Virus record (IMG/VR): IMGVR_UViG_3300018478_000173
Origin: a virus
Lineage: Duplodnaviria; Heunggongvirae; Uroviricota; Caudoviricetes
Length of the DNA: 4,325 bases
Reading direction: 5' to 3' (one strand)
The position numbers and the translations under genes were made by a program. The notes beneath the pieces were generated by a model. The model did no database searches. It saw only the letters and a program-made list of their open reading frames with translations, and was not told the origin of the DNA. The number at the start of each line of letters is the position of its first letter. The first letter of the stretch is position 1. Below are positions 1-3,860 of the stretch, piece after piece.

Positions 1-32
1 AAGACTATCACTTAAATAAGTGATATTGGTTG

Positions 33-82
33 TCTGGAGATTCAGGGGGCCAGTCTATCTGGAGATTCAGGGGGCCAGTCTA
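33..82. repeat. Perfect tandem direct repeat, 2 x 25 bp (TCTGGAGATTCAGGGGGCCAGTCTA at 33-57 and 58-82); each copy contains a short inverted repeat CTGG...CCAG
   Basis: Read directly from the sequence; both copies identical over 25 bp and exactly adjacent. Sits in an intergenic stretch where all three + frames hit stops within the first 21 nt of the window. Confidence 0.9.
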
Positions 83-335
83 ATAAAACATATCCTGTAT
101 ATTTATGTTGTTACATACAGGCGCTTTTAGTATCTGCCGCACGGCAGTTGTACTTCAGAATAAGATGCTTTTGTGACTGGTGGTGTTGTATCTGGGGTTA
201 GCCAGGAGGCAGGTTCAGAGAGTCCGGTGGTAATTATGTGTATGCAGTGGTTGTTGCTGTACCGTGGGCAAGTTCTGGAACTGGCTTCGTCCATTGTAGA
301 TGATTGTTAGCTGGATATCAGTTACCTCATGGAAA

Positions 336-344
336 TGTTAAATG
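336..344 (+). promoter_or_regulatory. Candidate extended -10 element (TGtTAAATG) for unit 1; weaker than the others because the last position is G
   Basis: TG at 336-337, hexamer TAAATG at 339-344; no convincing -35. The equivalent position in units 2-4 reads TAAATT. Confidence 0.2.
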
Positions 345-350
345 ACTCAC

Positions 351-569
351 AATTCGGTTGATGGACTATTGTCTGATCGATGGAAGTCTTGTAAAAACGA
401 GCCAGCATAGTGAATCCCCCTGTGCGGAGGGGCGTCTGACATGGTCTCCATAGCGATGGTCACAATACGCAGATTCAGTAGTCAGGCTGAATCTACCGGG
501 AGGCACCCGGCACTATGCTGCTTATGGTGTATACATAGCGATCGGCCCCTCTCCGGAGGGGCTTTTTTT
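351..569 (+). ncRNA. Unit 1 candidate structured small RNA (~219 nt): 5' leader, closing helix 404-412/511-519, hairpin 417-432 (CCCCT-GTGCGG-AGGGG), divergent core 433-495, hairpin 496-510 (CCGGG-AGGCA-CCCGG), tail, terminator
   Basis: Closing helix is 9 perfect base pairs (AGCATAGTG with CACTATGCT) and carries an A-T pair where the other units have G-C. The core contains a strong local hairpin AGATTCAG-N8-CTGAATCT (471-494). No conserved reading frame. Confidence 0.45.
545..569 (+). terminator. Intrinsic terminator of unit 1: 7-bp GC stem (GCCCCTC/GAGGGGC), loop TCCG, then T7
   Basis: Perfect hairpin 545-562 followed by TTTTTTT 563-569. Confidence 0.8.
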
Positions 570-595
570 GTGCGGGAAAAGGCTGTGTTGTTAAG

Positions 596-604
596 TGTTA
601 AATT
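596..604 (+). promoter_or_regulatory. Candidate extended -10 promoter (TGtTAAATT) for unit 2; hexamer is the same as I recall for the lambda pR' -10 (TAAATT)
   Basis: TG 596-597, hexamer 599-604; predicted start near A611 in the conserved CCTCACA context; no canonical -35, as is common for extended -10 promoters. Confidence 0.3.
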
Positions 605-610
605 CCTCAC

Positions 611-838
611 AGTTCAGATGGTTGATGCTTGCCTGTCTGAGGGGGAGTTGTTAAAAAAGTTCTGCATGGTGAATCCCCCTGTGCGGAGGGGCGACTGGTG
701 TGATTTGCATCTTTTCTGTTGTAGGCAATGCAAACGCGGGTTCAGGGACACCAGACTGGACTCACCGGGAGGCACCCGGCACCATGTTCATGATGATACA
801 GATACGCAGTGTCAGCCCCTCTCCTGAGGGGCTTTTTT
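611..838 (+). ncRNA. Unit 2 candidate structured small RNA (~228 nt): closing helix 664-671/780-787, hairpin 676-691, divergent core 692-764, hairpin 765-779, terminator 815-838
   Basis: Closing helix GCATGGTG with CACCATGT (one G-U pair). Core contains nested hairpins (CTGGTGT 697-703 with ACACCAG 749-755; TTTGCAT 706-712 with ATGCAAA 730-736). Confidence 0.45.
815..838 (+). terminator. Intrinsic terminator of unit 2: same 7-bp stem, loop TCCT, then T6
   Basis: Hairpin 815-832 followed by TTTTTT 833-838; the only change from unit 1 is in the loop. Confidence 0.8.
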
Positions 839-865
839 ATGCAGGAAAAACGCTGTGTTGTGAAA

Positions 866-874
866 TGTTAAATT
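866..874 (+). promoter_or_regulatory. Candidate extended -10 promoter (TGtTAAATT) for unit 3
   Basis: TG 866-867, hexamer TAAATT 869-874; same position in the unit as in units 2 and 4. Confidence 0.3.
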
Positions 875-880
875 CCTCAC

Positions 881-1098
881 AGTTCAGATTGTTGATGCTT
901 GCCTGTCTTACGGGGAGTTGTTAAAAAAGTTCTGCATGGTGAATCCCCCTGAGCGGAGGGGCATATCAGCGCAGGTGTTTCTACTCTATCCTTTCTGTGC
1001 GGGTTCAGGTGCTGATACTGAACTCACCGGGAGGCACCCGGCATCATGCATATGGTTAACAGACACGTAGCGAAGCCCCTCTCCGGAGGGGCTTTTTT
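881..1098 (+). ncRNA. Unit 3 candidate structured small RNA (~218 nt): closing helix 933-941/1042-1050, hairpin 946-961 (loop GAGCGG), divergent core 962-1026, hairpin 1027-1041, terminator 1075-1098
   Basis: Closing helix TGCATGGTG with CATCATGCA (9 bp including one G-U). Core has the stem TATCAGC...GCTGATA. Confidence 0.45.
1075..1098 (+). terminator. Intrinsic terminator of unit 3: same 7-bp stem, loop TCCG, then T6
   Basis: Hairpin 1075-1092 followed by TTTTTT 1093-1098. Confidence 0.8.
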
Positions 1099-1115
1099 AT
1101 GCAGGGAAAAGGCTG

Positions 1116-1124
1116 TGTTGTGAA
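1116..1124 (+). promoter_or_regulatory. Candidate extended -10 promoter (TGtTAAATT) for unit 4
   Basis: TG 1116-1117, hexamer TAAATT 1119-1124; same position in the unit as in units 2 and 3. Confidence 0.3.
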
Positions 1125-1130
1125 ATGTTA

Positions 1131-1349
1131 AATTCCTCACAATTCATGAGGTTGATGATTGTCTGATTGATGAGGAGTTTGTTAAAAAAAACGGGCATGG
1201 TGAATCCCCCTGTGCGGAGGGGTGATATCGTATCATTTCCTGTGTGGCCGACTGATATCACGGACATTTGTTCACCGGGAGGCACCCGGCACCATGCAGT
1301 ATACAGAGATTAGGCATACATCCAGGCTCCTCATCGCAGGAGCCTTTTT
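1131..1349 (+). ncRNA. Unit 4 candidate structured small RNA (~219 nt): closing helix 1195-1202/1290-1297, hairpin 1207-1222, shortened core 1223-1274, hairpin 1275-1289, non-homologous terminator 1325-1349
   Basis: Closing helix GCATGGTG with CACCATGC (8 perfect bp). The 5' conserved block carries small insertions relative to units 2 and 3. Core has the stem TGATATC...GATATCA. Confidence 0.4.
1325..1349 (+). terminator. Intrinsic terminator of unit 4: different sequence, same architecture (GGCTCCT-CATCGC-AGGAGCC then T5)
   Basis: 7-bp stem 1325-1331 with 1338-1344, T-run 1345-1349. Replaces the GCCCCTC hairpin used by units 1-3. Confidence 0.7.
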
Positions 1350-1355
1350 ACATGT

Positions 1356-1384
1356 AAAAAAAACCGCTCCTGGGAAGAGCGGTT
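1356..1384 (-). terminator. Opposing-strand intrinsic terminator: A8 on + (U-run on -) abutting the hairpin CCGCTC-N7-GAGCGG; with 1325-1349 it forms a back-to-back bidirectional terminator around the perfect palindrome TTTTACATGTAAAA (1346-1359)
   Basis: Stem 1364-1369 with 1377-1382, extendable by two A-T pairs; A-run 1356-1363 precedes it on the + strand. Confidence 0.45.
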
Positions 1385-1581
1385 GGCAAGGAAGCAAGGA
1401 ATAAATAACAAAACGTGAAGTAATTTATTCAGCACCCTAATAATACCTTAGAGTAATCACCTTGCGCAACTGTAAGGGCGTATTTCTTTTTTGCGGGCTG
1501 TTTTTCTGTGTGACTTTTGTGTTTCCGGAGGTCAGCCCGTGCCTTCTCTGACTCAGAACATTATCCCGGCCGGGAGGATTC

Positions 1582-3546
1582 ATGGCATTTAAACACTACG
1601 ATGTGGTCAGGGCGGCATCGCCGTCAGACCTTGCTGAACGACTGACACAAAAACTGAAGGAGGGCTGGCAGCCATTTGGCAGTCCGGTGGCCATCACGCC
1701 TTATACCCTGATGCAGGCCATTGCGGCGGAAGGTGATGTCACCACACCAGTGGCGGTGACCGGTAATGAGGGTAAGGCGGTGGCTGTCAGTGCCACCAGC
1801 GACCCGGAGTATTACTTTGTTGTGGTTCTGGCAGGGCAGTCAAATGGCATGTCGTATGGTGAAGGTCTTCCGCTGCCGGAGACATATGACCGTCCGGACC
1901 CGCGTATTAAGCAACTGGCGCGCCGCAGTACGGTGACACCGGGCGGTGTCGCCTGTAAATATAACGACATCATTCCGGCGGACCATTGTCTGCATGATGT
2001 GCAGGACATGAGCCGTCTTAACCATCCGAAAGCGGAACTGTCAAAGGGGCAGTACGGAACCGTGGGGCAGGGGCTGCATATTGCCAAAAAACTGCTGCCG
2101 TTTATACCGGCGAATGCGGGCATTCTGCTGGTTCCGTGCTGTCGTGGTGGTTCAGCGTTCACCACCGGAGCTGATGGCACATACAGTGACGCTGGCGGTG
2201 CCTCGGAGAATTCAGCGCGCTGGGGTGTGGACAAGCCGCTGTATAAGGACCTTATCGGTCGAACAAAAGCAGCACTGAAGAAGAACCCGAAAAATGTGCT
2301 GTTTGCCGTGGTGTGGATGCAGGGGGAATTTGATTTTGGCGGTACGCCGGCAAATCACGCAGCACAGTTTGGTGCGCTGGTTGATAAATTCCGTGCAGAC
2401 CTGACGGATATGGCAGGTCAGTGCGTTGGTGGCTCTGCTGGCGGTGTTCCCTGGATATGCGGGGACACGACGTATTTCTGGAAGCAGAAGAACGAATCCA
2501 CGTACCAGACGGTGTACGGCAGCTATAAAAACAAAACGGAAAAGAATATCCATTTCGTACCGTTCATGACGGATGAGAACGGGGTGAATGTGCCGACGAA
2601 CAAACCGGAAGAAGACCCGGACATTCCGGGTATCGGGTATTACGGTTCGAAATGGCGTGACAGCTCAGCCACCTGGACGTCACAGGACAGGGCGAGCCAT
2701 TTCAGCACCTGGGCACGCCGGGGGATTATTTCCGACCGTCTGGCAACGGCGATTCTGGTGCACGCCGGGAGAACCGCTGAATTCATTACCGGAAAACAGC
2801 CTGATATGGTGAGGCCCACCGTACCTTCCGGTGAAGGTCCGGAGAGAGAGGCGGAAGCCCCGGCCAGTAAGCGTACCCTGATGAGTCTGCTGGCATCCGG
2901 CGAAGACCTGGCATCACAGGGCTGGCGCTATTATCACAAACCGGCGGGCGGAGACAGTGTTAACAAAAACATTGCTGAAGCGGTGGTCAGTGATGCGGGG
3001 GCTACGGGAGGTAAGGCTCTGCAACTGAACAAACCGGAAAACCACATCTGGTTTCTGGAGCATGATGCAGCCGGACAGGGGGCGGAGTTACTGAAGAAGG
3101 GCGGACGTGTGAGCGTACGGTTTAAGTTGCCGGGTTCACTGGTGCCGAATCAGTTTGCCCTGGGCATTTACTGGCAGTTGTCGTCCCTGCCGGAGGGGGT
3201 GATGCTGTCAGGAGAAGGTAACGATATGCTGATGTCTTTCTTCCTGCAGACGGATACGACGAACCTGAACGCGATGCATCACAGGAAGCCGAATGCGAAG
3301 CTGGATACATTCGGGGTCTTTGATAACGGATGGCACACGCTGGCTTTTGAGTTTGCCGGAAACAACAGCATTCAGGTGACACCAGTACTGGATGAGAAAC
3401 GGGGAGCGGCGTTCACACTGGTGAAGTCACCGGCATCGGGGGCGGTGGACAAACTGCAACTGACCGATATATCAAAATCGGCGACGTATACGCTGCTGAT
3501 TGACAGCATTGCGGTGGAAGTGAACAGCACAGACACTGCGGCATGA
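1582..3546 (+). CDS. nanS-p: Prophage-encoded sialate O-acetylesterase (NanS-p-like), 654 aa: N-terminal DUF1737-like domain, SGNH/SASA esterase domain with the GQSN motif, and a long C-terminal domain
   Basis: Intact 1965-nt ORF. GGAGGA at 1573-1578 just upstream of ATG 1582. GQSN at residues 85-88 (nt 1834-1845), characteristic of the sialate O-acetylesterase branch of SGNH hydrolases. The N-terminus MAFKHYDVVRAASPSDLAERLTQKLKEGWQPFGSPVAITPYTLMQAIAAEG matches, from memory, the DUF1737 N-terminal domain of NanS-p proteins of EHEC lambdoid prophages. Function is from recalled homology, not a search. Confidence 0.9.
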   Translation: MAFKHYDVVRAASPSDLAERLTQKLKEGWQPFGSPVAITPYTLMQAIAAEGDVTTPVAVTGNEGKAVAVSATSDPEYYFVVVLAGQSNGMSYGEGLPLPETYDRPDPRIKQLARRSTVTPGGVACKYNDIIPADHCLHDVQDMSRLNHPKAELSKGQYGTVGQGLHIAKKLLPFIPANAGILLVPCCRGGSAFTTGADGTYSDAGGASENSARWGVDKPLYKDLIGRTKAALKKNPKNVLFAVVWMQGEFDFGGTPANHAAQFGALVDKFRADLTDMAGQCVGGSAGGVPWICGDTTYFWKQKNESTYQTVYGSYKNKTEKNIHFVPFMTDENGVNVPTNKPEEDPDIPGIGYYGSKWRDSSATWTSQDRASHFSTWARRGIISDRLATAILVHAGRTAEFITGKQPDMVRPTVPSGEGPEREAEAPASKRTLMSLLASGEDLASQGWRYYHKPAGGDSVNKNIAEAVVSDAGATGGKALQLNKPENHIWFLEHDAAGQGAELLKKGGRVSVRFKLPGSLVPNQFALGIYWQLSSLPEGVMLSGEGNDMLMSFFLQTDTTNLNAMHHRKPNAKLDTFGVFDNGWHTLAFEFAGNNSIQVTPVLDEKRGAAFTLVKSPASGAVDKLQLTDISKSATYTLLIDSIAVEVNSTDTAA

Positions 3547-3583
3547 TAAAAAAAGCCGCCAGTTACCGGAATGGACTGGCGGT
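3547..3583 (-). terminator. Strong hairpin right after the nanS-p stop, oriented as an intrinsic terminator for the minus strand (A7 on + before the stem, no T-run after it)
   Basis: A-run 3548-3554; stem GCCGCCAGT (3555-3563) with ACTGGCGGT (3575-3583), 9 bp including one G-U; 11-nt loop. It may still slow plus-strand transcription after nanS-p, but it lacks the U-tract of a classic + terminator. Confidence 0.4.
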
Positions 3584-3651
3584 GGTAATACCCATGGAGA
3601 AATATAAAGGAACGATACTTTCGTGCTCTGTTTTTTTAAATGAAAACAGTT

Positions 3652-3667
3652 CTTATTGTCAACAATA
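3652..3667. promoter_or_regulatory. Inverted repeat TTATTG-N4-CAATAA upstream of the small TM ORF; overlaps a perfect TTGACA hexamer on the minus strand (+ coordinates 3656-3661)
   Basis: Read directly; 6-bp arms with a 4-bp centre. Could be an operator or a divergent promoter element. No binding protein can be assigned. Confidence 0.25.
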
Positions 3668-3680
3668 ACGGTAAGAAATT

Positions 3681-3860
3681 ATGACTTTTATTCATCAGGT
3701 GATGCTGTACTTCTGTACGGCAGTCTGTGTGCTGTATCTCCTTTCGGGTGGATACCGGGCCATGCGTGACTTCTGGCGCAGACAGATTGACAAAAGGGCC
3801 GCTGAGAAAATCAGCGCCAGTCAGTCAGCCGGAAGCAAACCCGAAGAGCCGCTCATTTAG
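3681..3860 (+). CDS. Small predicted membrane protein, 59 aa, not in the supplied ORF track (below its apparent length cutoff): hydrophobic N-terminal helix then a basic/polar tail
   Basis: ATG 3681 to TAG 3858-3860. Translation MTFIHQVMLYFCTAVCVLYLLSGGYRAMRDFWRRQIDKRAAEKISASQSAGSKPEEPLI has about 20 hydrophobic residues followed by R/K-rich sequence, a plausible single-pass TM peptide. The Shine-Dalgarno is weak (AAGAAA), and the ORF overlaps, in another frame, the implausible N-terminal extension of the 3727 ORF. Confidence 0.35.
   Translation: MTFIHQVMLYFCTAVCVLYLLSGGYRAMRDFWRRQIDKRAAEKISASQSAGSKPEEPLI

Follow-up and report, generated by a model that had tools for sequence, protein, structure and literature searches.

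What are the four similar units that stand head to tail just upstream of nanS-p in a lambdoid prophage, and why are there four of them? The window considered here is the whole of a 4,325-nucleotide stretch, the tailed-phage record IMGVR_UViG_3300018478_000173 (IMG/VR, Caudoviricetes), numbered from its first letter. An earlier note, made from the letters alone, had described four ~260-bp units, each with a candidate extended -10 element, a conserved 5' region, two conserved hairpins around a divergent core and a terminator of its own, and had proposed a family of small structured RNAs. We found that the units, U1 to U4, are genes of a catalogued prophage small RNA (sRNA) family, STnc100, of the EcOnc05/EcOnc27 type of Escherichia coli O157. 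The array is probably a tandem set of four paralogous STnc100 genes which are independently transcribed, whose RNAs are bound by Hfq and diverge in their targeting parts, and which are read through under Q.

Four STnc100 genes in tandem

Anchored on the two conserved hairpins, window 336-1349 resolves into four head-to-tail units with spacings of 259, 270 and 261 nt (Table 1), in agreement with the ~260-bp period first noticed. Tandem Repeats Finder returned a period-270 array at 545-1222 (81% matches, score 831), and a repeat search of the window gave the second hairpin as a four-copy family (spacings 269, 262 and 248), together with 101-151-nt families that also connect all four units. The number of units in the earlier note thus stands, while its 3' limit does not: the hairpin at 1362-1384 is not part of U4, its T run being on the minus strand, and the array ends at about 1349-1355.

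The pattern of conservation was also as the note had sketched it. Among the four units the 5' scaffold is 93-100% identical and the second hairpin with the closing arm 85-92%, compared with 51-59% for the core between them; the identity is 75-94% in the leader, 52-68% in the pre-terminator linker and 65-96% in the terminator. The terminator scan found a G+C-rich hairpin followed by a T run at the end of every unit, with stems at 544-563, 814-833, 1078-1091 and 1324-1345, and the region 1-1700 contains 9 terminator-like sites against 1.5 +/- 1.2 in dinucleotide shuffles.

The window was then scanned with cmscan against all 4,227 Rfam families. Four full-length plus-strand matches to STnc100 (RF02076), a gammaproteobacterial prophage sRNA, were obtained, each covering model positions 1-206 of 206, with scores of 119.5-141.7 bits and E values of 1e-26 to 1e-32. 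These scores are 2.5-3 times the gathering score of 47, and the novelty implied by the earlier note falls with them. An identity as tRNA remnants or as fragments of repetitive extragenic palindromic (REP) or insertion sequence (IS) elements, which the note had named as a possible refutation, was rejected: ARAGORN found no tRNA in the window, and IS-derived sequence is limited to window 1-82.

The Rfam structure of STnc100 consists of an 8-bp closing stem (GCAUGGUG / CACCAUGC) around two hairpins and a variable core, followed by the linker and the terminator; the hairpins in the consensus are CCCCU/AGGGG and then CCGGG-AGGCA-CCCGG. The minimum-energy fold of each of U1-U4 reproduced this structure. 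In a covariation set of 180 distinct units out of 203 loci, 89% of the closing-stem cells were canonical, compared with 77% (maximum 79%) in 500 shuffles. Stem positions 3-6 carry G-C, A-T, T-A and C-G compensatory types, for example TTGCTATG/CATAGCAA and GTCAGGTG/CACCTGTC, and one compensated change lies inside the window, where U1 has GCATAGTG/CACTATGC and U2-U4 have GCATGGTG/CACCATGC: a G-to-A change in the 5' arm is matched by a C-to-T change in the 3' arm (G-C to A-U). Applied to 174 whole units, MAFFT and RNAalifold resolved the 5' scaffold and the second hairpin but nothing else, the variability of the cores and terminators being too great for alignment. The proposal of a structured RNA family is therefore borne out by the Rfam model, the folds and the covariation.

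Just 5' of U1, window 296-316 (GTAGATGATTGTTAGCTGGAT) is 76% identical to the leader segment 1151-1171 of U4; it may be what is left of another unit, or the likeness may be due to chance.

Table 1. Positions in the window of the four units, their parts, and other features.
Feature	Position	Strand	Evidence or remark
U1	336-569	+	Rfam STnc100 376-571, 119.5 bits; terminator scan; fold z = -3.57
U1 upstream box TGTTAAATG	336-344	+	last base G, hence weaker
U1 second box TTGTAAAAAC	389-398	+	degenerate
U1 closing-stem arms GCATAGTG; CACTATGC	405-412; ~511-518	+	
U1 first hairpin	~416-431	+	
U1 variable core	432-492	+	
U1 second hairpin CCGGGAGGCACCCGG	496-510	+	
U1 linker	519-544	+	
U1 terminator; T run	~544-563; 563-569	+	
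U2	595-838	+	Rfam STnc100 635-844, 140.8 bits; terminator scan; fold
U2 upstream box TGTTAAATT; second box TGTTAAAAA	595-603; 649-657	+	
U2 closing stem; core	from 664; 691-764	+	
U2 second hairpin	765-779	+	followed by linker
U2 terminator; T run	~814-833; 833-838	+	
U3	866-1098	+	Rfam STnc100 906-1104, 141.7 bits; fold
U3 upstream box TGTTAAATT; second box	866-874; 919-927	+	
U3 closing stem; core	from 934; 961-1025	+	
U3 second hairpin	1027-1041	+	
U3 terminator; T run	~1075-1092; 1093-1098	+	
U4	1126-1349	+	Rfam STnc100 1166-1355, 141.3 bits; fold z = -2.39
U4 upstream box TGTTAAATT; second box	1126-1134; 1180-1188	+	
U4 closing stem	from 1195	+	
U4 core	1222-1272	+	short, with its own long-range pairing
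U4 second hairpin	1275-1289	+	
U4 linker and terminator; T run	1324-1345; 1345-1349	+	Sakai Sp5 EcOnc27 type
Convergent sRNA candidate, EcOnc08/21/42 type	1354-1530	-	minus-strand terminator; Sakai Sp4 identity
Weak terminator-like hairpin and T-rich tract	1460-1494	+	terminator scan; between sRNA pair and nanS-p
nanS-p-type esterase gene, 654 amino acids	1582-3546	+	Pfam DUF1737, SASA, DUF6645

Relatives of the units and a model of their expression

Members of the STnc100 family have been described in E. coli O157 as Hfq-bound sRNAs. EcOnc05 and EcOnc27 were recovered as clusters by crosslinking and analysis of cDNA (CRAC) with Hfq in uninduced lysogens (Tree et al. 2014, PMC4104026). On Northern blots EcOnc05 measured ~222 nt and EcOnc27 ~235/247 nt, the 247-nt form being destabilised without hfq, and the Hfq crosslinks fell on the 3' part of both RNAs, from the second hairpin to the terminator in EcOnc27 and from the core to the terminator in EcOnc05 (PMC4104026). 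The eleven dispersed STnc100 copies of strain EDL933 (O157:H7) are all transcribed, one of them with Northern confirmation (PMC5331693). EcOnc27 is the same RNA as sRNA103, whose overexpression raises fimZ and espA (PMC7873438, PMC12711010).

The single unit of Sakai prophage Sp4 corresponds to EcOnc05 and has the same GCCCCTCTCCGGAGGGGC terminator as U1-U3. In Sakai Sp5 (locus L004) the STnc100 gene lies at 6423-6628 (207.7 bits), 75 nt past stx2B, and the EcOnc27 cluster covers its 3' part after correction for a 142-nt coordinate shift; the 3' end of U4 aligns nearly base for base with that of this gene. The closing stem, the two hairpins, the terminator, the site between the moron genes and nanS-p and the tail-to-tail pairing with a minus-strand sRNA are common to EcOnc05, EcOnc27 and the window units, which differ in being four head to tail instead of one copy per prophage. 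The suggestion in the earlier note that known prophage sRNAs of enterohaemorrhagic E. coli might be involved was thus right as to the family. Its example, a StxS-type pR'-tR' transcript, which would lie directly past pR' and Q and stop at tR', was rejected, as the array in related genomes lies far past Q, beyond the tRNA and moron genes; in the stretch of Sakai Sp5 from Q to the tRNA genes, a hidden Markov model of the unit detected nothing similar.

PasD1 and PasD2 of enteropathogenic E. coli E2348/69 (EcOnc13 in Sakai) are likewise Hfq-dependent, and form chimeras with many mRNAs in RIL-seq, a sequencing of interacting RNAs after their ligation. Their seed and RIL-seq partners map to the 3' linker, the equivalent of the unit linker. 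PasD is an RNA of ~172 nt starting GCATGG, and the 5' end of PasD2 lies 7 nt past a TTAAAA box. A 2026 preprint proposed a common ancestor for PasD and STnc100 and reported that the Pas copies are distant and not tandem (10.64898/2026.05.13.724894). PasD has its 5' scaffold (GCATGGTGAATCC onwards, with the second hairpin) in common with the window units, and this is the sole common part: the PasD seed/3' region CCTTGTGAGTTCTGGCTGCGCATG gave 0 matches in the window at up to 3 mismatches, and the STnc100 model gave PasD2 41.4 bits, short of its threshold of 47. The units were therefore not assigned to PasD.

The terminator of PasD2 corresponds to the second terminator downstream of the sRNA pair and not to the unit terminators. 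In the alignments with Sakai Sp5 and E2348/69, the PasD2 seed and terminator (L005 4270-4330) match the plus-strand terminator beyond AsxR (L004 6690-6740) and window 1437-1494, so that the weak hairpin in front of nanS-p (Table 1) is homologous to both the second terminator of Sp5 and that of PasD2. As its seed and terminator align there, and do not match the terminator of STnc100, PasD resembles a fusion of an STnc100 5' scaffold and the downstream terminator, produced by deletion of the first terminator and of the anti-sRNA gene.

Adjacent paralogous sRNA genes with their own promoters and terminators and partly common sequence are also found in OmrA/OmrB of E. coli and PrrF1/PrrF2 of Pseudomonas. 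Those genes belong to the core genome and have a common seed with divergent regulation or flanks, whereas here the scaffold is common and the presumed targeting parts diverge, and the array is carried on a mobile prophage in variable copy number. LhrC1-4 of Listeria, tandem core-genome sRNA genes with a common seed, are comparable to the window array.

With Hfq binding, transcript sizes and expression in the lysogen taken from the published homologues, the following model can be drawn. In the lysogen, a sigma-70 extended -10 promoter, likely TGTTAAATT, would drive the separate transcription of each unit into an RNA of ~220-230 nt that would stop at its own intrinsic terminator. The candidate box TGTTAAAT(T/G), read from the sequence by the earlier note as well, is present at the start of each unit, and a start just past it predicts RNAs of 219-229 nt; this start is favoured because the Northern sizes of the homologues fit it. 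A second conserved box, TGTTAAAAA, occurs ~55 nt further 3' in each unit, degenerate in U1. Because of the mapped 5' end of PasD2, it is a credible alternative -10 element, which could yield forms of ~155-175 nt as in PasD. A classical -35/-10 scan gave no plus-strand promoter within the array, extended -10 boxes being outside the model of the scan. Nor did a profile made without gaps from the 100 nt upstream of 159 distinct units reveal a promoter conserved across the family, so that the assignment rests on the E. coli relatives and the Northern sizes.

The RNA would fold as a scaffold in which the 8-bp closing stem encloses the two invariant GC hairpins, and which would stabilise it, while the single-stranded linker and the U-tailed terminator hairpin would bind Hfq. 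We infer that all four copies are expressed and that their variable parts are target-recognition modules, the differing core and linker giving each RNA its own pairing partners, be they mRNAs or sRNAs of the host or of a prophage. After induction, RNA polymerase modified by Q would travel from pR' past each of the four terminators and on into nanS-p and the lysis genes. This is a fair inference, since in related genomes Q lies on one side of the array and the lysis genes on the other, and the neighbouring phage genes have the same strand as the array.

Several observations weigh against this model. The evidence of expression comes from homologues (EcOnc05, EcOnc27, STnc100_4 and PasD) and not from U1-U4, and the effects published for the family are indirect and concern one member, sRNA103. 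The fold z-scores of the four units are modest (-3.6 in U1, -2.4 in U4, and -0.9 and -1.8 in the other two), and both candidate -10 boxes are weakened in U1. Conservation peaks in the structured hairpins and not in a single-stranded seed; for an sRNA of the Hfq kind this is unusual, and it may leave room for a different protein partner. Finally, the existence of two- and three-unit variants shows that no single unit is indispensable.

Copy number and competing explanations

Of 5,426 complete E. coli genomes, 87 contain DNA nearly identical to the window; most of these are Shiga toxin-producing E. coli (STEC; for example O22:H8, O113:H21, O178:H19) from cattle and humans. The exact four-unit array is present in about 70-87. 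Counted one by one in the same 5,426 genomes, the U1 core is present in 87, the U2 core in 69, the U4 core in 81 and the U3 core in 436, of which 219 have it at full length. Natural variants carry U3 alone (O157:H7 strain 2571), U1 joined to U4 (U1-U4, JNEC-KY177) or U1-U3-U4 (P15-385). In the two-unit variant the junction falls within the conserved leader / first-hairpin segment, which points to homologous recombination between units.

Defined as two second-hairpin motifs 228-256 nt apart, the array pattern matched 71 IMG/VR viral contigs and, in a one-genome-per-species collection, 8 loci in Superficieibacter, Pantoea (one on a plasmid) and Leclercia. Counting the units by Hamming distance, with a cross-check by the Rfam model, gave arrays of two, three and four; Rfam-confirmed tandem copies number three in Superficieibacter electus, four on the Pantoea plasmid, three and two in Candidatus Pantoea formicae and four in Leclercia. 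Among 119 unselected viral loci with the motif there were 83 single units and 4 arrays. The remark of the earlier note that lambdoid late regions ordinarily lack such an iterated array is consistent with this count, and the tandem arrangement is a minority but recurrent one. In the phage collection no record had the four-unit array and none covered >=80% of the query, and a full-text literature search, with most subscription journals outside its coverage, returned no paper describing tandem STnc100 arrays. Between the STnc100 copies we also observed an isrI match (53 bits) in a Leclercia metagenome-assembled genome (L084 5617-5713) and a tRNA gene in Candidatus Pantoea formicae (L082 5682-5752).

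The array could chiefly be an evolutionary by-product, the conserved scaffold and leader segments of lambdoid prophages serving as sites of homologous recombination, where unequal or inter-phage crossovers stack different alleles and later delete them without selection for four. The E. coli series from solo U3 through U1-U4 and U1-U3-U4 to U1-U2-U3-U4 and the position of the two-unit junction agree with this, as does the fact that whole units are as different from each other (73-82% identity) as from the Sakai Sp4 copy (75-79%). From this mutual divergence, the array is judged to be old, or assembled from different alleles, and not a recent duplication. However, diverged arrays of two to four units recur in Pantoea, Superficieibacter, Leclercia and the 71 viral contigs, and no array has near-identical copies (over 48 distinct arrays, the core identity between units of an array averages 68% and never exceeds 85%), suggesting long retention. 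Such an origin, moreover, addresses the array and not the function of the unit, and is compatible with four working sRNA genes. As the main explanation we hold it to be unlikely, though not negligible.

A speculative extension, which we also think unlikely, is that STnc100 arrays are a modular cassette system whose invariant scaffold doubles as the recombination site for exchanging variable targeting cores. If so, a lysogen could assemble a tailor-made set of regulators, or of sponges that take up host sRNAs, and the E. coli series from one to four units, together with the Pantoea, Leclercia and Superficieibacter arrays of 3-5 units, would be snapshots of the process.

It is quite unlikely that the array is mainly a cis-acting stack of terminators which insulates nanS-p and the lysis cassette from transcripts begun in the moron genes upstream or in the IS element of the lysogen, is passed only by Q-modified polymerase and makes RNAs as by-products. 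Four canonical terminators in series and a fifth weak one at 1460-1477 do lie upstream of the late genes, with an IS3-family element and several plus-strand moron genes immediately upstream. However, a single unit is enough in most phages (the 83 single units against 4 arrays), and a terminator stack leaves unexplained the invariant non-terminator scaffold, the covariation of the closing stem and the stable Hfq-bound accumulation of the homologues.

We regard as improbable that the two-hairpin scaffold is a platform for a protein other than Hfq (a phage factor, or a host factor such as ProQ or RNA polymerase) and acts by sequestration or modification and not by base pairing. The location of conservation in the hairpins (93-100% within the array, with invariant blocks across 174 aligned distinct units) and in no single-stranded segment fits a platform, but EcOnc05 and EcOnc27 are crosslinked to Hfq in their 3' part, many mRNAs form chimeras with PasD in an Hfq-dependent way, and in the loci examined no gene for a partner protein regularly adjoins the units.

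That the units encode small proteins from the conserved ATG inside GCATGGTGAATCC is extremely improbable and was rejected: frames of 38-57 codons are open from this ATG in U2-U4 and some EDL933 STnc100 copies have ribosome footprints (PMC5331693), but the frame is not conserved (a start codon at this position in only 151 of 180 distinct units, ATA in U1; median open reading frame 17 codons; second hairpin in all three frames), the frames crossing the units have no Pfam match, and the ATG forms part of one arm of the covarying stem.

The moron site and its candidate minus-strand RNA

The four STnc100 genes belong to a lambdoid prophage of non-O157 STEC. They lie in its moron site, close upstream of nanS-p, the conserved phage gene that borders the moron / convergent-sRNA site on its downstream side and is annotated as a SASA family carbohydrate esterase in the RefSeq relatives. 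In the related genomes the order is Q, two hypothetical genes, a DNA methyltransferase, tRNA-Ile, tRNA-Arg, a TolA-like gene, a fifth STnc100 copy, a methyltransferase pseudogene, a helix-turn-helix gene and the four-unit array, followed by nanS-p, DUF1378, DUF826, holin and lysozyme. The array and the neighbouring phage genes are all on the same strand, and the distance from Q is ~5.5 to 7 kb depending on the presence of the IS. The array fills the slot that stx holds in Stx phages, inside the late transcription unit.

The moron region of this prophage thus contains five STnc100 copies, four in tandem and one ~3 kb upstream. The fifth gene was seen at L001 6011-6223 in O22:H8 strain 154 (172 bits) and at ~5320-5545 in L002 and L003, between the TolA-like gene and the DNA methyltransferase pseudogene.

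At the left edge, window 1-57 is the terminal sequence of an IS3-family element. Strain 154 has the insertion, with its transposase gene, at the same spot, and O113:H21 FWSEC0010 lacks it. The last 25 bp of the element (TCTGGAGATTCAGGGGGCCAGTCTA) are repeated exactly at positions 58-82; in strain 154 they are present once.

Convergent pairs of Hfq-bound sRNAs have been described in the moron site (Tree et al. 2014, PMC4104026), and U4 and a minus-strand RNA ending at 1354 make such a pair at the same site, upstream of nanS-p. The terminator scan placed the minus-strand stem at 1384-1362 and its T run at 1361-1354, abutting tail to tail the U4 terminator (1324-1349). Window 1290-1600 is 81% identical to Sakai Sp4, where the Hfq-CRAC peaks EcOnc08 and EcOnc21 map to the equivalent minus strand, and the published Sp4 probe sequence matches window 1440-1475. 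The EcOnc08/EcOnc21 RNA of Sp4 runs at ~271 nt on Northern blots (Tree et al. 2014, PMC4104026). At a similar length, the RNA of the window would start near 1625, inside the first nanS-p codons, and would cover in antisense both the ribosome-binding site of nanS-p and its start codon (ATG 1582). The body of the candidate contains a direct repeat, GCAAGGAA x2 on the plus strand (1386-1401), which is UUCCUUGC x2 in the RNA.

The pair differs from those with AsxR, AgvB or EcOnc03 as partner: the plus-strand member is present in four copies, and the minus-strand partner is longer and of the EcOnc08/21/42 type, unlike the AsxR/AgvB anti-sRNAs of 51-60 nt with their conserved 42-nt 3' region. In Sakai Sp5 the STnc100 gene is tail to tail with AsxR (L004 6630-6682), and the layout of Sp4 is alike. 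AsxR/AgvB anti-sRNAs inside or antisense to the units were considered and rejected, as neither RF02703 nor RF02702 gave a match at E<=1 anywhere in the window; the same scan scored AsxR at 88 bits in Sp5, where it adjoins the STnc100 gene.

Directly after the nanS-p stop codon, the minus strand of window 3548-3621 has a terminator hairpin and a T run. Its likeness to Esr41 is below threshold (25 bits against 102), and Sakai Sp5 has this element, too, after nanS-p, with 28 bits. It could represent a further convergent sRNA, or no more than a terminator working in both directions. An identity with PasA/PasC was rejected, as window 3530-3700 aligns with Sakai Sp5 and not with the PasA region of E2348/69.

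The sRNA family of the units is therefore already known, and what is unusual is their head-to-tail arrangement with four different variable regions. The novelty is modest: three variants of the core, and a layout of four genes in tandem that is met repeatedly in phages of Enterobacterales. For annotation, a 1-kb gap within which the inspected RefSeq records have no feature is fully explained by known RNA genes. Members of the family sit next to stx2, and machine learning placed single-nucleotide polymorphisms in EcOnc27 among the best predictors of haemolytic uraemic syndrome in O157 (PMC12711010). The strains with one, two, three or four tandem units form a natural allelic series, which could help to work out the role of this stx-adjacent family.

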